NCBI GenBank assembly: GCA_035762645.1
Contig: DASTOD010000567.1
Location: 1 to 54,852 of the forward strand
Reading direction: 5' to 3'
Source: Candidatus Binatia bacterium
GTDB lineage: Bacteria > Desulfobacterota > Binatia > UBA9968
DNA length: 54,852 nucleotides
Shown: in pieces, positions 30,532-54,324 of the stretch
Position numbering within the stretch: position 1 is the stretch's first letter
Layout: each line of letters begins with the position of its first letter
Program-made: the position numbers and the translations under genes
Notes under the pieces: model-generated
Told to the model about the DNA's origin: nothing
Database searches by the model: none
What the model saw: only the letters and a program-made list of their open reading frames with translations

Positions 30532-33500
30532 ATGCCGTACGAAATCCTTTCAGAGGAGTCGCAGGGCTACGAGGTGATCGAGCCAGAGGCGCCCTCTCTT
30601 CCTGGACCTTCCTTTTCCCGTGGCACACCGGCCGATATTCCGCTTGAAGAGGCTGAACCGAGCCGGACCGAGCTTCGTCAGCGATTGCAATCCGAACTGG
30701 AGGAGACACGCGCCGACAATCTTCTGGCCCGAGCGTTTTCCAGTCCGGAATCGATCATTCCTCCCTTGCTCCTTCCGCCCGAGGATCCCGGTTCGCTCGA
30801 GAACATCCTTCGGAAGCTGCCCCTGGGCGCTGGTGAGGACAAGGATCTGCGCGAGGATCGAGTCAAGGGAATCTCTTCGGCGCTGCGTGCCATTGAGGGT
30901 GGTATCCGGAGCGCGGGTCTTCCTGAAAATCTGCCTCTGATTCCACTGGCCGGAGGCAATCTTCTACGATTGGCCATGGGTGCCCTGTTTGGCGGCGAGG
31001 CTCTTGGCGCCGGCGCCGGTCAGGCGTCCGTCGGATTCGAACAGGGCGAACCGGAGACGGCCGGCGCTGGAGTAGGAACTGGTACTCTGGGTCTAGGATT
31101 AGCCAGCCCATTGGCTCGCCGAGGACTCGAGCTTACTCCCTCGAGATTTGACCCAGCCGCCATCGAGGAAGCCCGATTTCAAATGGCCAAGCCGGTTGGG
31201 CCAAGAGCCCCGGAGCGACCGGTCGCTTTGATTCCTGAACGAGTTGAACCAGTAACCACGGAGGTACCACGTGCCGAGCGTATCACAGAACCAACAGAAG
31301 TTTATGGCGATCTGCAGCCACGACCCGTCGAAGGCGCGAAAGAAGTGCCCGTCGAAGAAGGTGGCGCGGGAGTTCGCCCGGACATCCCACAAGAACCTGC
31401 CGCGGCGGGTGAAGGATTACTGGGAGCATTGACGGAACGCTTGAAGGTCGAGACTCCCGAAGCCTTGCGCCCGGTTGTCGACCAGATTTTCACGCCCGAG
31501 AAGATTCAGGCCAAGATCGAGCGAACATTGAAACCGTTTGAGGACCGGCCGGCCGAAGAACTCCGGATCATTCGAGAGCCGCAGAAGATGATCGAGTTGG
31601 TGAACCCCAAAACCGGAGAATCCATTCCCGCACGGTTTGATGGCTGGAACCGGCTTGGTGAACAGATTGCCGAACAAGTTGGCGACCCGGCGATTCTGGT
31701 GAATGAATCGGTGCCACCGGTTGATTTCCAGATCACGACGACGCGCGACATGGAATCGCTGGTCCGACCTGGACAGTACATCAAGGGGACCGGACCTGGG
31801 GGAACGCTTCAGAACGGCTCCACGCTCGCGTTGCACGGCTGGGAGGTCCGCGGGTTGCCGGAAGCTCCGAAAGTTGAAGCCGCGCCACAAGCGCCAGTGA
31901 CAGAAGCTCAAGTCGCATTGACTCCAGCCGAGCGCGTAGAACTCAACGAATTGAGGATCATTCGGGAGGACCGAGGACGTCTGGGGCGCTTGAACAGCGA
32001 ACGACTGTCCGAATTGGAAGCCAAGGAAGCCGTCCCCGTGGCTGAATCCCGCATCTCCCCGCAACCGGAAGCCGGGAACATCTTCGACATGGACGAAGGC
32101 GATCTCGGCGACTTCTTTGATGAGAAGTTCGGGGAGCAACCGGCCGCGGGTGTTCCTGGCCAGATCCGGCGTGCGGGCGAATTCAGCTTCCCCAATTACA
32201 CGGCGTTCGCGAAGTGGATGGAGGAACGGTACGCCGCCCTGGACATAGAGGGGATGCGCAACGCATTCGCCGAGGCTCCGACAGAGCACAAGATCAAATA
32301 CATCAAGGCGAACAAGGACGCTGATCCTCATAAGAAAGCATGGATCACGCATCTGGCTACGGGCGCTGAACTGCCGAAGGAACGTCCGCCCGTCGCGCAG
32401 CCCAAGGTGACTCCGGGGCAGCCGGTCCCGAAGCCTGGTCAGGCGCCGCCGAAGCCGCCGTATCCTGAACCGCCACCACCCCCGCCTCGGGCACGCACGC
32501 CTTACCGGAAGTTCGACACGATGGCGCTGGTTCAATTGATGCGTGAGTTTGGGAACCTGCCGAAGATCAACGATCAACTGATTCATGCCTACGGCCGTTT
32601 CCTGCCCAAGACTGAACTCTTGGAACTCAAGGACCGTCTCTTCTGGGACAGGGCTCTCGCTGAACGAGTCCTCGGGCATGAGATCGGTCATTTCATCGAC
32701 CTAGCCGTCCAGATCACGGGCAAAGGCAGAAAGTTCGGGGAACGTCTGGAGCCCTTTGACGACCTGCGCGCGAGGATTGGAACAAACCAGGAACTCAGGA
32801 ACGAAGCGCGCAGTCTAAGCGGTCAATGGCGTGGTCCCTTCAACAAAGGGGACCGGTACCGGGACAGCGCGGAGGAACTGTTCGCCGACTTCATGTCGGC
32901 GATGTTCAACAACCCGGAGTGGGTCAACCAGAATTTTCCTAAGCTCCACGACATTTTCACGAACCTGCTGGGAAGCAAACCGTCGTTTCGAGAGACCTAT
33001 CGGGAGATTGAAAGCTGGCTGGCGGGAGACACCATGGTTGCTGAATGGATCGGCCAACAACGCGAATCCGTGAAGCGGACCATGGACGATCTCCTCAAAG
33101 AGAAACCGCGTCATCGCGAGGGATTTGCGGATTGGCTCAAGGGCGCAACCGTTTCCATGTGGCATCGGGCTTTCGAGAAGGAAGGAAAACCGGCCAAGCT
33201 GGGAACGTCCATCACGGACGAACTCGAATACTCGGCTTTGTGGGCCGCTAAGGAAAATGCGCTCTTTGCCGACGACTGGACTAAAACTGTCCAGCCCGAA
33301 CTGGACAAAGTTAATGCGGATCCCATTCAGGCGCGCACGGACCTGCACGCCTATTCCCAGGCGAGGCGTACGATCGGCGAGCGTCGTGCGGCCGGCGTTT
33401 GGATCGAACAACATCCGGTCGAGGCGCGAGCAATGCTGACGGCGATACTGGACTTGAGTGACAATCTGCGAACGAAGTACGGAAATCAGTTAGCGTCCGC

Positions 33501-36012
33501 AGGTGATGCGGAGCTTTACGATTTGTCGGCGGCCATCTTCCGCGAGATCCACGACGGCGGGGAACGATTCGTCGAGAGGATTTCCAAGGAGATCGATAAA
33601 CTGAATCTGGGCGTCGGTGGGGATGCCGCCCTGCAGGCGTTCAATGTCCGTGGCAAACTGCTCAATCCCGGAGGGCTGAATGAGGCCAATGCCGTGAAGG
33701 TCATCCGCGATCTGCGCGCGCGACTTACTCCCGAACAGTTTCGCGCTCTGACCACGGCTTCGGAACGGATGCGGGATCTTTTGTTCCGAACGCAGCAAGC
33801 CGCCCATAAAGAAGGACTGATTTCGGACCGGGTGTGGAATGAACTGATCGCTCCGAACCGCGGCAATTACGTCCCCTATGCCGTGCTGGATTATTGGGAG
33901 GGGAAGGTCCGCGCTGGAGTCATGCCACAGAAAGGCACGGCCAAAGAGATTGCTGACGTCACGGTCAGTTCCCAGTTGAAAGCGGCCGCTCTGAACGTGT
34001 GGCGCCAGAGACAACGGCAGGTGCAACTTTTGCGGGATGCCTACCAGAAAGGCGGTCTGGAAATCCCCATCGGGGAACGTCTGAGACAGGCTTCCGACAT
34101 CGACAAGATTCGCAAACAGCATCCGAACGACGACATCAGCCGTGCGGTCCTTTGGCAGGATGGCCAGCCGCATCTGGTCGAGTTTCCGGGCGATCCGGGA
34201 AAGACTCTCGAAAAGGCCATGGACAGCGGCTCCTTTTACGAACACATGGAATGGTTGACCGATGCCAGCCGGCTCACGCACGGCATGATGCAGCTTTATA
34301 CCACCCTGAGCATTCCCTTCCTCGTCTACCGCAATCCCATTCGGGGAGCACGAACAGGGGCGCTCAGGGTTGGTTTCCGTTCGATTGGTAAGCAGTATCT
34401 CAATCCGGATGATCTGGCTTACGCGACCAGGCTGGCGAAGAACTACGCGGATGCGGCATTCGGTGCTTCGATGCTGCCCGAGGTCCGTGAACTGGTCGAA
34501 AAGCAAATGCTGTTACCACCACGACTTTCGAGCGCGATGGTCCGCGACGCTGGCAATCTTCGGGAAATTCTCGAAAACGGCGGAATTCTCGCCAGCCAGC
34601 TTCGGCAGGTGACGGGGCAGGAATGGCCCTGGTGGAAGGGCGGACAATTCGGTCAGGAAACTTACAAGTTCGCAGAGAAGGTATTCGCCGGATATGAAGC
34701 CTTCGAGAAGATCCAGAGTTACCTGGCCGCGAAGGCGCGCGGAGCCTCGCCAGAACAGGCGGTTGCCATCGGCCGGCGTGCAGGCATCCCGAAGCCTGGG
34801 GTGGGCGGTCATTTCAGCGGACCCATGGAAGTCTTCTTTCCCTGGACTCGCGTGCACATTCAAGGAGTTCGCTCTACTCTGGATTTCCTGCGAGATCCGG
34901 AATACCGGAAGGGCTTCGCCGCCAGATTCATGATCACCGAAGGCATGCCGCGCCTGCTGAAAGTCGGAATCGGCCTTGGAATTGCCTCTGGATTGGTTAG
35001 CTGGCTCCTTGCACCCGATGAAGATGAGAAGGATCCGGTGATGGCCGAAGTCTTTCGGCGCGTGAGCCCGTACAAGATGGCCCTGGACGACATCATTCCG
35101 CTGATGCTCTACGATCCTCGCAAGGGGCAGTACCACTACTTCAACGAGTTCAAAAAGGGGAGTGCCATACCCCAACACTACGAAGTGGTGAGCTTCCGCG
35201 TGCCAGCGTCAGAAGAGGGGCGTCTATGGGGAACGCTCCTTTACAACACATTGGTTTCGATTCCAGGTGCTAAGGAGCGTTTGGCCCGGCCGGGAGAGGA
35301 TTTGCTTTCGAATACAGCAAAATGGGCAGGCAATTACCTGTTGCCGGGAATTTCTCCGGCCATCACGACGACCAGAAATCTCGAGAAGATGATCCTCGAG
35401 GGCAAGAACCCCGAAGACCCTTACCGCGGGCAGCCATCCGCCAACAAGCAGCTTTTCGACGCCGGCGGGGTTGACCGTGCCCAAGCGATCGCCGGTTACA
35501 CGCTCAACGAACTGGGTGGACCAGGGGAAATCGCCGCCGTGATGGCCATGAACTTCGGGGTTCTGGATCCGCGCGCGGCCGATGCACTCAAGAAAAGGCT
35601 TGCGATGGACAAGACGCCGCTGCCCGAACGTGTACCGCTGGCGAAGAACATGTTCTCATACGACAATTACGCTCAGTACCGCACCGAGAAGATGGCCGAG
35701 TTGGAGGAGAACCAGCTACGGGCCCGGGCACGGCTCGTGATGTCCGATTCGGTCCGCGGGTTGTACGACTATTATTGGAAGAACATCGAGCGGAAGAAGA
35801 GCCTGACGCCCGAGGAGTTGAACAAGCTCAGTGCGGCAGCGTACTTCGTGAATCATCTCTGGGGGAACCTGAACAACCCGGACAGCTTCTACGCACGGGC
35901 GGCTCGATCGGCCGGTCCTGACGGCTCTAAGCAGTCCCGGGAGACGGTTCGCCGCGATCTGGACCAGGCGGCGGCGCCGGCGCTGGCGAGGTTTTCTGGG
36001 CGTAGGCCTTAG
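30532..36012 (+). CDS. giant virion-associated protein (1826 aa) with a zincin HExxH motif
   Basis: Uninterrupted 5.5-kb ORF. VLGHEIGHFIDL (nt 32677-32691 encode HEIGH), with downstream EELFADF as a possible third ligand. A Pro-rich linker (PPKPPYPEPPPPPP) precedes the motif. Confidence 0.8.
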   Translation: MPYEILSEESQGYEVIEPEAPSLPGPSFSRGTPADIPLEEAEPSRTELRQRLQSELEETRADNLLARAFSSPESIIPPLLLPPEDPGSLENILRKLPLGAGEDKDLREDRVKGISSALRAIEGGIRSAGLPENLPLIPLAGGNLLRLAMGALFGGEALGAGAGQASVGFEQGEPETAGAGVGTGTLGLGLASPLARRGLELTPSRFDPAAIEEARFQMAKPVGPRAPERPVALIPERVEPVTTEVPRAERITEPTEVYGDLQPRPVEGAKEVPVEEGGAGVRPDIPQEPAAAGEGLLGALTERLKVETPEALRPVVDQIFTPEKIQAKIERTLKPFEDRPAEELRIIREPQKMIELVNPKTGESIPARFDGWNRLGEQIAEQVGDPAILVNESVPPVDFQITTTRDMESLVRPGQYIKGTGPGGTLQNGSTLALHGWEVRGLPEAPKVEAAPQAPVTEAQVALTPAERVELNELRIIREDRGRLGRLNSERLSELEAKEAVPVAESRISPQPEAGNIFDMDEGDLGDFFDEKFGEQPAAGVPGQIRRAGEFSFPNYTAFAKWMEERYAALDIEGMRNAFAEAPTEHKIKYIKANKDADPHKKAWITHLATGAELPKERPPVAQPKVTPGQPVPKPGQAPPKPPYPEPPPPPPRARTPYRKFDTMALVQLMREFGNLPKINDQLIHAYGRFLPKTELLELKDRLFWDRALAERVLGHEIGHFIDLAVQITGKGRKFGERLEPFDDLRARIGTNQELRNEARSLSGQWRGPFNKGDRYRDSAEELFADFMSAMFNNPEWVNQNFPKLHDIFTNLLGSKPSFRETYREIESWLAGDTMVAEWIGQQRESVKRTMDDLLKEKPRHREGFADWLKGATVSMWHRAFEKEGKPAKLGTSITDELEYSALWAAKENALFADDWTKTVQPELDKVNADPIQARTDLHAYSQARRTIGERRAAGVWIEQHPVEARAMLTAILDLSDNLRTKYGNQLASAGDAELYDLSAAIFREIHDGGERFVERISKEIDKLNLGVGGDAALQAFNVRGKLLNPGGLNEANAVKVIRDLRARLTPEQFRALTTASERMRDLLFRTQQAAHKEGLISDRVWNELIAPNRGNYVPYAVLDYWEGKVRAGVMPQKGTAKEIADVTVSSQLKAAALNVWRQRQRQVQLLRDAYQKGGLEIPIGERLRQASDIDKIRKQHPNDDISRAVLWQDGQPHLVEFPGDPGKTLEKAMDSGSFYEHMEWLTDASRLTHGMMQLYTTLSIPFLVYRNPIRGARTGALRVGFRSIGKQYLNPDDLAYATRLAKNYADAAFGASMLPEVRELVEKQMLLPPRLSSAMVRDAGNLREILENGGILASQLRQVTGQEWPWWKGGQFGQETYKFAEKVFAGYEAFEKIQSYLAAKARGASPEQAVAIGRRAGIPKPGVGGHFSGPMEVFFPWTRVHIQGVRSTLDFLRDPEYRKGFAARFMITEGMPRLLKVGIGLGIASGLVSWLLAPDEDEKDPVMAEVFRRVSPYKMALDDIIPLMLYDPRKGQYHYFNEFKKGSAIPQHYEVVSFRVPASEEGRLWGTLLYNTLVSIPGAKERLARPGEDLLSNTAKWAGNYLLPGISPAITTTRNLEKMILEGKNPEDPYRGQPSANKQLFDAGGVDRAQAIAGYTLNELGGPGEIAAVMAMNFGVLDPRAADALKKRLAMDKTPLPERVPLAKNMFSYDNYAQYRTEKMAELEENQLRARARLVMSDSVRGLYDYYWKNIERKKSLTPEELNKLSAAAYFVNHLWGNLNNPDSFYARAARSAGPDGSKQSRETVRRDLDQAAAPALARFSGRRP

Positions 36013-41546: not shown

Positions 41547-42661
41547 TGGGCGAAGGAACTAGCATTCAGTGGGCGGATGACACGCACAACTTCTGGCGGA
41601 TCTGCACCAAGGTCAGTCCGGGTTGCAAAAATTGCTATGCCGAAACCCTGCTCAAGAATCGTCGCGGTGAGAAATGGGGCAAAGGCGCACCGCGCATCCG
41701 ACTCAAGGCTTTCGACGCACCGATCCGATGGAATAAGAAGCCCTGGGTGTGCGACCTATGCGGCTCGCGAAGTGCCGCCAATCGCCGCGACAATGGGAGT
41801 TGTCTGAACCCCTTGTGTCCTTACCGGGATGGATCAGCGGGCAGCTTTCATCGCCGCCGCGTTTTCTCGCTGTCGCTCGGCGACTGGCTCGATGAGGAGG
41901 TTCCGATTGAGTGGCTGGCGGACATGCTCAACGTGATTCACCAATGCCCGAACTTGGATTTTCTGCTGCTGACGAAGCGCCCTGAGAATTGGTCGCCACG
42001 AATGGAGTCTATTCGCCTTCATGGGCTTGATCAGAAATGGGTCAGCACGAAATGGGACATGGAGAATCAGCCTCCGCACAACGTTTGGATCGGCGTCTCG
42101 GTCGAGGATCAGCAACGTGCGGACGAACGGATTCCGCAACTGCTGAAGATTCCGGCGCGCATTCGGTTCCTGAGTGTCGAGCCGCTGCTGGGGCCAGTGC
42201 GGTTGGATTTCGAGTGGCGTAACGATTTGCAGCGATGGGATTCAGCCGGGCGCGAACTCGAACCGCGTAGGATCGACTGGGTGATCGTCGGGGGCGAGAG
42301 TGGTCCCGGCGCGCGCCCATGCAAAGTTGATTGGATCAGAAGCGTCCGCGACCAATGCAAAGCAGCCGGTGTTCCAATGTTCGTGAAACAGTTGGGATCC
42401 AATCCTCACCGCAATGGCGAAGACGAATCGGAAACTACTATCCTACTTGATCACAAAAAGGGTGGTGACATCTCCGAGTGGGCCGAGGATTTACGCATTC
42501 GAGAATTTCCATACCAACCAATGAGAGACGCGAATCCTAGGCATCTTCGCGTCACGTCCGGCGAGGCTATGGTCCGTGGTCGTTCGGCCTGCGCTGGGAA
42601 CTTGATAGACGGGGACTCGCTCGATCACGGCGGGCGAGCCCCGAAGGCGGAAAACTTATGA
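41546..42661 (+). CDS. phage Gp37/Gp68 family (DUF5131) protein
   Basis: ATG 41546 overlaps the upstream TGA. The N-terminus (TSIQWADDTHNFWRICTKVSPGCKNCYAE) and later GGESGPGARP...WIRSVRDQC...GVPMFVKQLG are the family signature. Confidence 0.8.
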   Translation: MGEGTSIQWADDTHNFWRICTKVSPGCKNCYAETLLKNRRGEKWGKGAPRIRLKAFDAPIRWNKKPWVCDLCGSRSAANRRDNGSCLNPLCPYRDGSAGSFHRRRVFSLSLGDWLDEEVPIEWLADMLNVIHQCPNLDFLLLTKRPENWSPRMESIRLHGLDQKWVSTKWDMENQPPHNVWIGVSVEDQQRADERIPQLLKIPARIRFLSVEPLLGPVRLDFEWRNDLQRWDSAGRELEPRRIDWVIVGGESGPGARPCKVDWIRSVRDQCKAAGVPMFVKQLGSNPHRNGEDESETTILLDHKKGGDISEWAEDLRIREFPYQPMRDANPRHLRVTSGEAMVRGRSACAGNLIDGDSLDHGGRAPKAENL

Positions 42662-43680
42662 GCAACCAAACCCAGGCCATCACCAAACCCGAAGCCGGCA
42701 CACTGGAATACGTTCCCTTCGGTTCGCAGGACAAAATCAAACTCAACGTCAAGATCGTTCAGGACTTGATCGCCGTTCCGACGAAGTCCGGCAAAACCTG
42801 TTCGCAACGTGACGCCCTCAAGTTCATGGCCATGTGTCAGGCCAAACGACTCAATCCCTTTGAGGGTGATTCGTACCTCATCGGGTATGACACACAAAAC
42901 GGACCCGAGTTCAGTTTGATTACTGCCCATCAGGCGTTTCTGAAACGCGCGGAGATTCATCCCGAGTACGACGGGATGCGGTCCGGAATAATTCTTCTGA
43001 CCCAAGAGGGTGTTCTCGTGGACCGTGAGGGTGACTTCCACTTGCAAAATGAAAACGTCGTCGGCGGATGGGCGACGGTCTTCTTCAAAAACCGGAAGTA
43101 TCCGACAACTCGAAGGATCCGGCTCGAGCGGTTCAACAAGGGTTTCGCGCAGTGGAAGGTCGATCCGGCTGGTATGATCGTAAAATGCGCAGAAAGTGAC
43201 GCACTCCGATCTTCATTTCCGACGATGTTGGGTGGTCTGTATCTGCGCGAGGAAGTAAGTGCGTTTATCGACGGTGCGGCCGGTGCCGGTCCGTCGATCG
43301 AGATTGCGGAGTCACGATTGATTCCGCCTCCCAAACCAAAGGATTCGGCGGAACCAAAGCAGTCCGGTGGGGCTGCCGCGGAACAGCCGGAGCCGACTCC
43401 CGCGACTGCCGCTTCGGAGTCTTCCTCTCACCCCACAGAGGGCGACGGTCCGGGGGTCATTCCTTTGGAGCACGGGGACGGCGAAGACCCGACGGCGCTC
43501 ATCCGAATCATCATGACGAACGCGAGCGATCACGACATCACCGAGGCGAGCATCATGCAGTGGGCGGCGGCGGCGAAGATGGCCACGCCCAAACAGAAAC
43601 AGTTGAGCGACCTCGCTGCGCACAAGCTGCGCACCATCTGCGAGCAGTGGCCAACCGTGGTCAAAGACATCAACGGATGA
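42658..43680 (+). CDS. recT: RecT/Bet-family single-strand annealing protein
   Basis: ATGA overlap. ...FMAMCQAKRLNPFEGDSYLIGYD...ITAHQAFLKRAE...VKCAESDALRSSFP matches RecT features. Confidence 0.8.
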   Translation: MSNQTQAITKPEAGTLEYVPFGSQDKIKLNVKIVQDLIAVPTKSGKTCSQRDALKFMAMCQAKRLNPFEGDSYLIGYDTQNGPEFSLITAHQAFLKRAEIHPEYDGMRSGIILLTQEGVLVDREGDFHLQNENVVGGWATVFFKNRKYPTTRRIRLERFNKGFAQWKVDPAGMIVKCAESDALRSSFPTMLGGLYLREEVSAFIDGAAGAGPSIEIAESRLIPPPKPKDSAEPKQSGGAAAEQPEPTPATAASESSSHPTEGDGPGVIPLEHGDGEDPTALIRIIMTNASDHDITEASIMQWAAAAKMATPKQKQLSDLAAHKLRTICEQWPTVVKDING

Positions 43681-43683
43681 TGA

Positions 43684-44817
43684 ATGAGGCATCTGGATCT
43701 GTTCACTGGGATTGGCGGCTTCACGATCGCGGCCGAGTCCGTCGGATTTGAAACCGTTGCGTTCAGCGAGATCCACAAGGACAAGTGCATCGTTTTGAAA
43801 CATTACTGGCCGCACGTGCCGAATCTCGGAGACATCTGTGATGAGCACTTCCTTGAGCGAGCCAGAGCGATTGAACCGTTTGATCTCGTTACGGGCGGCG
43901 TTCCTTGCCAGCCTGCGAGCGCGCTCGGACAAATGCGCGGTGCTTCTGACGAACGCTGGCTCTGGCCCGAATTTGTCAGAGTGGTACGCACGTTTCGACC
44001 CAGAGTGGCGGTCGCTGAAAACCCGCCAAGTGTCCTTGTTCTGCCGGAATTCCACGGAGTCCTTGGAGAGATTGCCGCGCTCGGGTATGATCTGTTGTGG
44101 GATGTTATTCCCGCTGCCGCGTTTGGTGCAGGGCATCTCCGAGAACGCGTGTTCATTGTCGCTGCCGACGCCCGTCGCTGCCGACGGCAAACGCGGACCG
44201 GATTATGCACGGTCGAACCGACCGGAGAAAAGCGGCGACGATCTGGTGACCCGGATGGCGAAACTTCTGCCAACTCCAACGGCCAACGACGGAGTGAAGA
44301 GGGGCGACGCCTATCTATTCGAGAAACGGACAGAAAAGGGCAAATGGAATCCCTGCGACAATCTTCCGAGATCAATCGCGAAGCAGTTGCTTCCAACACC
44401 GACCACCCGCGATTACAAGGACACGCCGGGGATGCTGTTCGAGACGAAGGACAGAAGCAGGAACGATCAGTTGCCGAGACGGGTATTCAAGACGCTGTTG
44501 CCGACGCCGAATACTTGGGATCACAAAATAGGATACAGCGACGCGATAAACAGGCGGGAGCCGAAACTCAAGATGCGTGGCTACACGGCAACGAGACCGT
44601 TGGCGAATCGCATCATCGAGAAGCAACACTCCCAGACCTGCGGGGCCGTGTCACCGGCCCGGACTGGTGGCATGAAGCTCACACCGGAATTCCTGTGCTG
44701 GCTCCAGGGATTCCCGGTCGATTGGCTGAAGCCGTTAGTCTCTGCGTTGGCGACTCGGTCGTCCCGCAAGTCGCCGCGGCGGTCCTCCAGCCCATCTACG
44801 AAATGCTGAAGCGATGA
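43684..44817 (+). CDS. DNA (cytosine-5) methyltransferase; 'frame A', the full-length ORF
   Basis: Motif I is DLFTGIGGF, IV is GGVPCQ, VI is AENP and VIII is GAGHLRERVFIV. The C-terminus is WW.E...GIPVLAPGIPGRL....VGDSVVPQVAAAV (motif X-like). The central ~190 codons are an R/E/Q/G-rich stretch with low third-position G+C. Confidence 0.75.
   Translation: MRHLDLFTGIGGFTIAAESVGFETVAFSEIHKDKCIVLKHYWPHVPNLGDICDEHFLERARAIEPFDLVTGGVPCQPASALGQMRGASDERWLWPEFVRVVRTFRPRVAVAENPPSVLVLPEFHGVLGEIAALGYDLLWDVIPAAAFGAGHLRERVFIVAADARRCRRQTRTGLCTVEPTGEKRRRSGDPDGETSANSNGQRRSEEGRRLSIRETDRKGQMESLRQSSEINREAVASNTDHPRLQGHAGDAVRDEGQKQERSVAETGIQDAVADAEYLGSQNRIQRRDKQAGAETQDAWLHGNETVGESHHREATLPDLRGRVTGPDWWHEAHTGIPVLAPGIPGRLAEAVSLCVGDSVVPQVAAAVLQPIYEMLKR
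43838..44809 (+). CDS. nested +1-frame ORF ('frame B', 323 codons) carrying LPTP repeats and a motif IX-like segment
   Basis: Open from 43799 (first start GTG 43838, ATG 43841) to 44809. Contains LPTPVAADGKRG, LLPTPTANDGVKRG, LLPTPTTRDYKD, LLPTPNTWDHK and LTPEFLCWLQGFPVDW. Third-position G+C is about 72-76% by hand count. It is unresolved whether this is a separate product, a frameshifted part of the methyltransferase, or neither. Confidence 0.35.
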   Translation: MMSTSLSEPERLNRLISLRAAFLASLRARSDKCAVLLTNAGSGPNLSEWYARFDPEWRSLKTRQVSLFCRNSTESLERLPRSGMICCGMLFPLPRLVQGISENACSLSLPTPVAADGKRGPDYARSNRPEKSGDDLVTRMAKLLPTPTANDGVKRGDAYLFEKRTEKGKWNPCDNLPRSIAKQLLPTPTTRDYKDTPGMLFETKDRSRNDQLPRRVFKTLLPTPNTWDHKIGYSDAINRREPKLKMRGYTATRPLANRIIEKQHSQTCGAVSPARTGGMKLTPEFLCWLQGFPVDWLKPLVSALATRSSRKSPRRSSSPSTKC

Positions 44818-44843
44818 ACGATCAAGAAACAGAGTGAAGAGAA

Positions 44844-48857: not shown

Positions 48858-49081
48858 TCAATCGAGACTGGAAGGAACCCTGGGTTGATCGGATGGGTCT
48901 GGTCGTTGCGCTGAGTGGCGAGGACCGATTCACGCATTTGCAGCGGCTCAAACGGGACATGGCGCCGCTCGCGCCGGAGCAACAAGCGGAGCTTCGCGAG
49001 TGCTTCCGGCAACGCTTCACACCCAGCAACGGAGTTGATGGCTGTCAAAGTGCAACTCAGGCAGTTAGGGAGGTTATGTGA
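48854..49081 (+). CDS. hypothetical protein (75 aa)
   Basis: ATGA overlap at 48854. Confidence 0.6.
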   Translation: MINRDWKEPWVDRMGLVVALSGEDRFTHLQRLKRDMAPLAPEQQAELRECFRQRFTPSNGVDGCQSATQAVREVM

Positions 49082-49668
49082 TCGAGAAGTGGGGCTGCTA
49101 TACGCAACCAGAACCGGTTTGGAAAGGCATACCTGGCTTCTTCGACTTCCAGGACGTTTATAACGAAATCGCCGACTGGGCTCAGGACGGCTTTACTCTG
49201 GTTGAAGTCGGTTCATTCCTCGGCCGCTCAGCCTGTTATCTGGGCGAGCAACTGCAGGCGCGGGGCAAGCGCGTCACTCTGATCTGTGTCGATACCTGGC
49301 CCGCGGCGTACAACTGGGGTCCGGAGCATTTTCCACAGCTCGTCATCGAGTCGCCTTTCGAGACGTTCTATGCAAACGTGCGGCAGTCCGGGTTGCTCGG
49401 TACGATCGTACCTATACGGGCTTCATCTGCACGGGCTTCAGACTTCATCAAAGATGGTCTGGACTTCGTTTACATCGACGCCGGCCACGATTATCCGAAC
49501 ATCGCGAATGACATTTCGGTTTGGCTTCCAAAGGTGCGCTCCGGCGGGATCCTGGCTGGCCACGACTACAACCTGGAGAGCTTCCCCGGGGTGGTGCAGG
49601 CGGTCAACGAGTCGTTCGGACCTGATCAACGTGAGATCCGCGGGGCTTCCTGGGTGGTGAAATTATGA
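49078..49668 (+). CDS. class I SAM-dependent methyltransferase (Methyltransf_24/CmcI-like)
   Basis: GTG 49078 with a GGGAGG RBS. LVEVGSFLGRSACYL (motif I), DFVYIDAGHDY and GGILAGHDY. Confidence 0.7.
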   Translation: MIEKWGCYTQPEPVWKGIPGFFDFQDVYNEIADWAQDGFTLVEVGSFLGRSACYLGEQLQARGKRVTLICVDTWPAAYNWGPEHFPQLVIESPFETFYANVRQSGLLGTIVPIRASSARASDFIKDGLDFVYIDAGHDYPNIANDISVWLPKVRSGGILAGHDYNLESFPGVVQAVNESFGPDQREIRGASWVVKL

Positions 49669-54089: not shown

Positions 54090-54138
54090 GTGTGTCCGAG
54101 CTATGCGAGGACACACACAGTGCCTCTGCCTCTGCCTC
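54090..54138. repeat. 8-bp-stem hairpin GTGTGTCC/GGACACAC followed by (TGCCTC)x3
   Basis: Stem 54090-97 pairs with 54109-16, with an 11-nt loop. The tandem hexamer lies at 54121-54138. Confidence 0.6.
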
Positions 54139-54324
54139 TGAGTACGCAACATCTTGTACAGAATTGTTCGCCAAGCAACAGTATGTTTCTACGCACCACA
54201 AAAAGCAACAAAACGCAACGGTTGCGAGAAATGTTTTGACTGGGGTAAGGTGGGGAGGTAGAAGGAGGGAGGCAATGCACTTCAAGATTAAACCGAAGCT
54301 GTTCACTTATGAAAGGAACGAGGC

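Follow-up and report, generated by a model that had tools for sequence, protein, structure and literature searches.

Positions 43684-44817 of contig DASTOD010000567.1 (Candidatus Binatia bacterium, assembly GCA_035762645.1; the 54,852 nt analysed are called the window) carry two overlapping open reading frames (ORFs) on the same strand, which very probably form a nested gene pair for a two-subunit (heterodimeric) DNA cytosine-5 (C5) methyltransferase in a phage module. The two products, called alpha and beta, most likely assemble into one cytosine methyltransferase whose conserved motifs are divided between them. Enzymes of this kind are already known but rare, with one characterised precedent (M.EcoHK31I), and annotation tends to overlook their layout; the locus in the window is an unannotated further case. 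A family-wide description of nested phage methyltransferase genes was not found in the open-access literature.

Motifs divided between two nested frames

Both ORFs are uninterrupted. Frame A extends from an ATG at 43684 to 44817 (377 aa), and frame B, which is +1 relative to frame A and lies wholly inside it, extends from a GTG at 43838 to 44809 (323 aa). With Pfam PF00145, frame A alone matched profile positions 1-227 of 324 (120 bits) and frame B alone gave no match. An A-B-A chimera matched positions 1-322 of 324 (132 bits). Motifs IX and X of PF00145 are both present at the locus, yet on two polypeptides, IX in frame B and X in frame A. The large-domain motifs (I, IV, VI and VIII) are all in frame A and are invariant in its homologs. 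A preliminary description of this DNA, made from its letters, had reported the two open frames and their motifs, and both were recovered by ORF listing and motif location. Two of its coordinates are corrected here, as motif X spans 44746-44784 (given before as 44749-44766) and motif IX begins at 44678 (given as 44672). It had also stated that the order VIII, target-recognition region (TRD), IX, X can be read only as A to B to A, and PF00145 positions 1-322 of 324 were indeed covered by the A-B-A concatenation only. The features of the locus are as follows.

43684-44817 (+): candidate alpha subunit ORF in frame A, 377 aa, with catalytic large domain, linker and motif X (PF00145, E=1.7e-34; phrog_363, E=1e-58)
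43702-43719 (+): alpha motif I, FTGIGG, S-adenosylmethionine (AdoMet) binding; G9 and G12 invariant in alignment A1
43828-43832 (+): Shine-Dalgarno (SD)-like GGAGA upstream of the beta start, 5 nt from the GTG and 8 nt from the ATG
43838-44809 (+): candidate beta subunit ORF in frame B (+1), 322-323 aa, nested in alpha, starting at GTG 43838 or ATG 43841 (phrog_1008, E=3e-30)
43841-44155 (+): beta N-terminal module (...SLRAAFLASL...SLKTRQVSLF...LPRSGMICCGMLFPLPRLV...), over alpha motifs IV-VIII and conserved across 46 beta proteins
43894-43911 (+): alpha motif IV, GGVPCQ, with the catalytic Cys; P74, C75 and Q76 invariant
44017-44025 (+): alpha motif VI, ENP; E112 and N113 invariant
44134-44160 (+): alpha motif VIII, HLRERVFIV, its last codons sharing nucleotides with the first beta LPTP unit
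44158-44170 and 44174-44186 (+): two copies of GTCGCTGCCGACG, 13 bp with a 16-nt period, read in beta as S-L-P-T and then V-A-A-D
44162-44509 (+): beta TRD, with four LPTP-x3-D units at 44162, 44267, 44390 and 44498
44195-44248 (+): beta GPDYARSNRPEKSGDDLV in the TRD
44239-44655 (+): alpha central linker, residues ~186-324, R/E/Q/G-rich and predicted disordered by AlphaFold2 (AF2; predicted local distance difference test score, pLDDT, <50)
44408-44434 (+): beta RDYKDTPGM in the TRD
44678-44725 (+): beta motif IX, LTPEFLCWLQGFPVDW, aligning to RLSPAFSEWMMGWPAGW of the metagenomic single-chain relative P0116
44746-44784 (+): alpha motif X, VGDSVVPQVAAAV, followed by a C-terminal helix (AF2 pLDDT ~94)

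In the AF2 model of alpha, residues 1-175 have pLDDT above 90, residues 345-376 are confident and residues 186-324 are disordered. This model can be superposed on the M.HaeIII and M.HhaI large domain (E about 1e-13). G356, V360, P361 and Q362 of the tail are almost invariant (alignment A3). The linker is the off-frame reading of the beta TRD; as a protein it is not conserved, yet it is stop-free. Where parts of the alpha centre do seem conserved, they coincide with invariant beta motifs, LQGHAG of alpha reflecting RDYKDTPGM of beta and PDLRGRV..DWWHE of alpha reflecting GGMRLTPEFLCW of beta. Many metagenomic homologs, about 40% identical, have been called in the style of frame A, with the N-domain, a variable R/E/G/S-rich centre and a tail ending in GNxVVPQV. 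By these comparisons, alpha appears to be a large domain, comprising motifs I-VIII as well as X, whose parts are connected by a linker, the off-frame image of beta.

The GGAGA upstream of beta is formed within the alpha codons L-G-D of the conserved PNLGD, and no start other than GTG 43838 and ATG 43841 precedes the conserved beta N-terminus. Alignment A2 gave the conserved N-terminal module as L.SLR.ACLASL...SLRTRQ.SL...DWPRSGMICGGMYFPLPRLV, followed by a variable number of LPTP units and then by RDYKDTPGM...DQLPRR...GGMRLTPEFLCWLMGFPPDW; F284, W287, G290 and W295 of beta are invariant in it. The database contained 81 homologs of beta, most at 92-99% coverage and with E-values down to 1e-82, all of them without a Pfam domain or a name. 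A HMMER scan with beta found 3129 representative clusters at E<=1e-3. The remark in the preliminary description that the N-terminal part of frame B looks like phage proteins that stand alone proved useful, as the match to phrog_1008 shows. Frame B is a genuine protein family, and the conserved blocks point to beta as a docking module followed by the TRD and motif IX.

In the single-chain relatives (metagenomic proteins P0116 and P0117, and gp071 of Mycobacterium phage WillSterrel) all motifs are in one frame, and there are no subunits to be brought together. They share with the window the N-domain, the LLPTP-repeat TRD, motif IX (P.F.EWMMGWP.GW) and motif X (IGNGVVPQ). Alpha residues 1-160 aligned to residues 18-185 of P0116 (E=1e-34), and beta residues 102-296 to its residues 219-375, which comprise the variable region and motif IX (E=8e-12). 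Alpha VGDSVVPQ matches IGNGVVPQ of the same protein.

In the two-subunit enzyme proposed here, alpha would supply the catalytic large domain (motifs I-VIII), read on through about 180 codons of non-conserved, disordered linker, and end with motif X and a helix that would complete the large domain. Beta would start independently at GTG 43838 or ATG 43841, downstream of the GGAGA. It would supply an N-terminal module that probably docks onto alpha, and its LPTP-repeat TRD and motif IX would form the small domain. The two polypeptides would associate non-covalently and rebuild the order I-VIII / TRD-IX / X. We infer the independent initiation of beta, the alpha-beta association, and the methyltransferase activity and specificity from the sequence.

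The alpha and beta polypeptides of M.EcoHK31I have 309 and 176 aa, and those of the window 377 and 322 aa. This enzyme is reportedly owed to Lee, Kam and Shaw in 1995. It comes from E. coli HK31 and is a C5 methyltransferase of two polypeptides, both required, with the beta gene wholly inside the alpha gene in an alternate frame of the same strand (PMC2836561, PMC3404938). Its alpha contains motifs I-VIII, X and the TRD, its beta contains motif IX, and association with alpha requires the N-terminal part of beta (PMC2836561, PMC3404938). The window has the same arrangement in that beta is nested in alpha in the +1 frame, with motifs I-VIII and X in alpha and motif IX in beta. It differs in the centre of alpha, which is an unconserved, disordered by-product. 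M.EcoHK31I is part of a restriction-modification system, whereas the gene in the window is part of a phage RecT/exonuclease module, and no restriction enzyme was identified next to it.

Base composition was not a guide to the coding frame. Third-position G+C (GC3) over 43838-44157 was 0.54 in frame A and 0.745 in frame B, and over 44158-44730 it was 0.50 and 0.72, respectively. The remaining genes of the window have a first-position G+C (GC1) of about 0.63 and a GC3 of about 0.65. Because GC1 about equals GC3 in these ordinary genes, GC3 is not diagnostic here and was rejected as a frame discriminator. The hand counts of GC3 in the preliminary description were numerically right, and it is their use as an argument for one frame that fails. 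The deposited protein of the contig (P0001) is exactly frame A, and frame B of this contig was absent from the protein collection searched. Blastn of the locus against GenBank phages gave no match, and there was no close cultured relative at the DNA level.

Conservation of both frames among related loci

The comparative set comprised about 100 related loci from phage contigs, metagenome-assembled genomes (MAGs) and cultured phages. We fetched 80 IMG/VR viral contigs that encode relatives of the N-domain (35-50% identical N-domains). When the window's frame-B segment was used in tblastn, all hits (34 loci of the 80, near-identical ones counted) were +1 to the N-domain and never in frame 0. Ten loci from bacterial MAGs were obtained by a genome contig scan with narrow search patterns, and the +1 layout was found in nine of them (Phycisphaerae, Desulfovibrio, Methylocystis, Planctomycetales and others). 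In nearly all of the loci, the +1 frame becomes open about +100 to +250 nt past the alpha start and closes 8-130 nt short of the alpha stop; the third frame is broken into pieces. Among the 71 unique related loci, most have a nested layout like that of the window. A two-frame layout that is family-wide is therefore neither an assembly artefact nor a one-off mutation. At two loci (L085 and L086) the gene caller chose B over A, and about 130-160 nt upstream of B, where alpha begins, went uncalled (the alpha start of L086 is at 2871). One locus, in a Phormidesmis sp. MAG (L097; JAAUPS010000129, 745-1622), was the sole one with a short beta-like match in the N-domain frame, and its alpha-tail match is in frame 2. 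It may represent a different arrangement or an indel between the domains.

We examined stop codons in full loci against synonymous-codon shuffles of frame B across the centre. Of 69 unique loci, 65 had no frame-A stop across the beta centre, when 10.6 were expected, and frame A was open in 25 of the 28 centres of at least 100 codons (1.5 expected). The third frame showed no stop avoidance across the centre (4.48 stops observed, 4.14 expected). Over alpha nt 181-474, 65 of 71 loci had no stop in frame B, compared with an expectation of 7.7. These counts answer a check proposed in the preliminary description, namely whether homologs keep both frames open: most of them do.

Constraint on the frame-B protein was measured in locus pairs whose alpha proteins were less than 55% identical, by comparing the mean frame-B BLOSUM62 score with a synonymous-shuffle null. 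In the overlap (alpha codons 55-158), the score was 0.409 against a null of -0.086 +/- 0.016 (z=30.5). The control region, alpha codons 1-48, which lies 5' of the window's beta start, gave -0.411 against -0.277 +/- 0.028 (z=-4.8). Over nt 44180-44650, the frame-B translation found 15 of 98 loci at E<=1e-3 and the frame-A translation found none of the 98. These data indicate that both frames are under purifying selection and that frame B is kept as a protein over the catalytic motifs IV-VIII.

Alternatives to the proposed nested two-subunit enzyme

The preliminary description had considered a disrupted methyltransferase, ribosomal frameshifting and a genuinely overlapping second gene. The last of these has been borne out by the roughly 100 divergent loci, the stop avoidance, the frame-B constraint and the large frame-B family. 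A broken single-chain gene or an assembly artefact would call for a 16-bp duplication at 44158-44186 with a compensating indel near 44730, leaving a pseudogene. The 13-bp repeat with its 16-nt period, on which this idea was built, is real and mildly improbable. It is the sole direct repeat of at least 13 bp within 40 nt in the window, apart from a (TGCCTC)n hexamer tandem repeat at 54121-54140 near the contig end, and such a repeat occurred in about 3% of Markov-1 simulated windows. The arithmetic also holds, as removal of 16 nt fuses frame A to frame B. However, beta reads the repeat region as LSLPTPVAADGKRG / LSLPTPVAAD, one motif equal in length to the family consensus 'sslwPTPxAxDxkxG', so nothing has been inserted there. 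A repeat of at least 9 nt at the matching position was present in only 4 of 71 relatives. About 100 independent contigs, which come from a range of studies and hosts, have the two-frame layout. Both frames are open for about 970 nt, and synonymous shuffles of the window's own locus gave 5.8 frame-A stops in the centre, with 0 of 300 open. The comparative data effectively refute a broken gene, which we consider extremely improbable. The 13-bp repeat is a codon-choice idiosyncrasy of this genome, specific to the window, and was rejected as a duplication or shift site on account of the consensus length of the beta motif and the missing repeat in most relatives.

Programmed frameshifting would produce a single-chain enzyme, with or without separate products, by a +1 shift near 44160 into frame B and a -1 shift near 44728 back to frame A. 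This would be in keeping with the A-B-A chimera, which has the best Pfam coverage (1-322 of 324) and is collinear with the single-chain relatives, and its two frame switches coincide exactly with the motif VIII / first LPTP and motif IX / pre-X positions. What was described as a frame junction is misleading, however, because throughout the family one set of nucleotides serves both the end of alpha motif VIII (F-I-V-A) and the first WPTP/LPTP unit of beta. None of the 16 junctions displayed contains a slippery heptamer (X_XXY_YYZ), repeats there are rare in relatives as noted above, and neither a stop codon nor any other known +1 shift signal is present in frame A at the junction. Frame B shows protein-level constraint over about 300 nt upstream of the supposed shift site, and frame A has been kept free of stops over 100-240 codons downstream of that site; the frameshift model needs neither. 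Frameshift genes are recognised by a conserved shift site (a slippery heptamer, or a hungry or stop codon for +1 shifts) and a 0 frame normally closed downstream, and the locus has an open 0 frame and no such site. Two successive efficient shifts in one gene would be without known precedent, and M.EcoHK31I works as two polypeptides (PMC2836561). Frameshifting is in our judgement very unlikely. The enzyme may also consist of two subunits divided in another way, with only the N-domain of alpha mattering and motif X being dispensable or joined to beta by a -1 shift where motif IX ends, an arrangement like that of the actinophages and M.AquI, whose beta has IX and X. The family can work so, as actinophage alpha stops soon after motif VIII and the +1 beta has the TRD, IX and X. 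In the clade of the window, though, beta terminates without reaching a motif X, which occurs in frame A only. Frame A is selectively open through the centre up to motif X, and the tail of alpha hardly varies (alignment A3) and was modelled with confidence by AF2. We give this other division a small chance of being correct.

Several observations weigh against the nested two-subunit reading that we favour. SD-like signals precede the candidate beta starts in just 35 of 71 relatives, even with a loose motif list, and the beta start is a predicted one. Beta alone has no match in Pfam or NCBIfam, the beta profile has none among PDB sequences, and the AF2 model of beta is poor (pLDDT 58, too low for a fold search). 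For these reasons its label as a small domain is taken from the alignment to single-chain relatives. A poor model of beta alone is unsurprising for a subunit that needs its partner and DNA. Frame C also scored above the shuffle null in the overlap (z=14, about half as strong as frame B), so that the BLOSUM62 test is not perfectly frame-specific; an excess of this kind is expected as a by-product of constrained alpha synonymous sites. The loci are not phylogenetically independent, and since one Firmicutes clade makes up about 25 near-identical layouts, the counts overstate the number of independent events. The TRD of M.EcoHK31I has been placed in alpha, whereas the TRD homology of the window (LPTP repeats, GPDYAR...GDDLV) is in beta, and the likeness between the two systems is drawn from published descriptions of layout and not from the sequence of M.EcoHK31I. 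The case for the locus and its close relatives is made by sequence comparison and structure models.

Split relatives and genomic context

M.AquI of Agmenellum quadruplicatum is split after motif VIII, with motifs IX and X on the second polypeptide (PMC3404938). In enzymes of this type the first subunit ends within the variable region. The window is unlike them, as its motif X is in the alpha frame and its beta stops without one; actinophage relatives do conform to the type. In the pairs gp34/gp35 of Sebastisaurus, gp43/gp44 of Andrew and gp81/gp82 of PrincessTrina, the split follows motif VIII and the second gene is +1 and overlaps the first. Their beta shares with the window's beta the N-terminal module, the LPTP repeats, GPDYAR..GGDDL and motif IX. 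Their alpha ends soon after motif VIII and their beta has both IX and X, with a partial overlap of 32-239 nt as annotated and about 300 nt by conservation. In the window, the alpha frame has retained or regained motif X, and alpha must therefore read through the whole beta gene. In Streptomyces phage Sebastisaurus (L081) the annotated start of gp35 is at 1672, and its frame is open and conserved from about 1400. The beta N-terminal module there (FDPDTSSWRT...FTKSGMTLRGQLYELP) lies upstream of the gp35 start and overlaps gp34 by about 300 nt. The annotated start of gp35 seems to be too far downstream; gp44 of Andrew has been annotated with a longer overlap.

Paenibacillus phage Lily has the same nested layout as the window in gp62/gp63, where gp63, annotated as 'g62 internal gene', starts at +184 in the +1 frame. 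Pairs of the Lily type, with relatives in Bacillus, Paenibacillus and Lactobacillus phages, have an alpha of about 250 aa and a beta of about 164 aa that ends before the alpha stop, and motif X is in the alpha tail of related loci of the L048 type. Their beta is far shorter than that of the window and has one ATPT-type unit in place of repeated LPTP units; the alpha N-domains are about 36-38% identical. The internal gene has been annotated only in Lily, while Harrison and others list alpha alone.

Two relatives have unusual arrangements. WillSterrel (L083, NC_051719) contains an unannotated +1 ORF at 1294-1827 (~175 aa) inside gp071 (1242-2417). Despite the single-chain gp071, this ORF encodes an N-module of the beta type (YDPDTRSWK...YSETWPKTGYMSGG...SLLPTPE), and it may have been left over from a split ancestor or may specify a small protein made on its own. 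The 341-aa protein P0036, from an ENA metagenome contig of about 1.6 kb, has the alpha N-domain in frame with a TRD, motif IX and tail of the beta type (…WKPIADALATRLSRTSSSP) and no motif X. It may be a natural fusion variant or the result of a frameshift error in a short contig.

The searches suggest that the family is large and mostly unannotated, and that such pairs are commoner in phages than the literature implies. We put forward tentatively, at somewhat less than an even chance, that the nested alpha/beta pair is an ancient architecture of thousands of phage and prophage C5 methyltransferases, with single-chain, partly overlapping and nested forms as interconverting states. If this is true, 300-1000 nt would be under dual purifying selection across hosts from the Actinobacteria, Firmicutes, Planctomycetes and Proteobacteria, among the longest and most widely conserved same-strand dual-coding regions of prokaryotic viruses. 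Gene callers would also be missing the pair systematically, reporting alpha or beta and rarely both. Long same-strand overlaps with both frames selected are rare and often disputed in bacteria and phages, and the present one has unusually clean comparative support together with a biochemical precedent. The public record of the contig lists alpha only, and relatives are listed as 'DNA cytosine methyltransferase' or as 'hypothetical protein' without a Pfam domain. Because databases hold alpha or beta alone, such enzymes look truncated or odd and the specificity subunit is invisible. Recognition of the pair matters for predicting anti-restriction methylation by phages. Naturally split methyltransferases are also scaffolds for targeted methylation tools, as has been done with M.EcoHK31I, and the family could show how a coding frame tolerates a second functional frame over catalytic motifs.

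The locus is part of a phage recombination module in the order RecT, methyltransferase, exonuclease. A RecT-like gene at 42658-43680 lies upstream, and its stop codon (TGA, 43678-43680) is separated from the alpha ATG at 43684 by a gap of 3 nt; the region 43676-43686 reads GGATGATGAATG. So short a gap suggests that translation of the methyltransferase is coupled to that of the recombination genes. An exonuclease-like gene begins at 44834, downstream of alpha. Arthrobacter phage Andrew has a comparable module, with RecE- and RecT-like genes immediately 5' of its methyltransferase pair. Elsewhere in the window, a very large ORF at 30532-36012 (+, 1826 aa) matched nothing in PHROG at E<=1e-5. About 4 kb downstream of the locus, at 49078-49668 (+), lies another methyltransferase-like ORF (196 aa), unrelated to the first, which matched phrog_2675 (E=7e-17).

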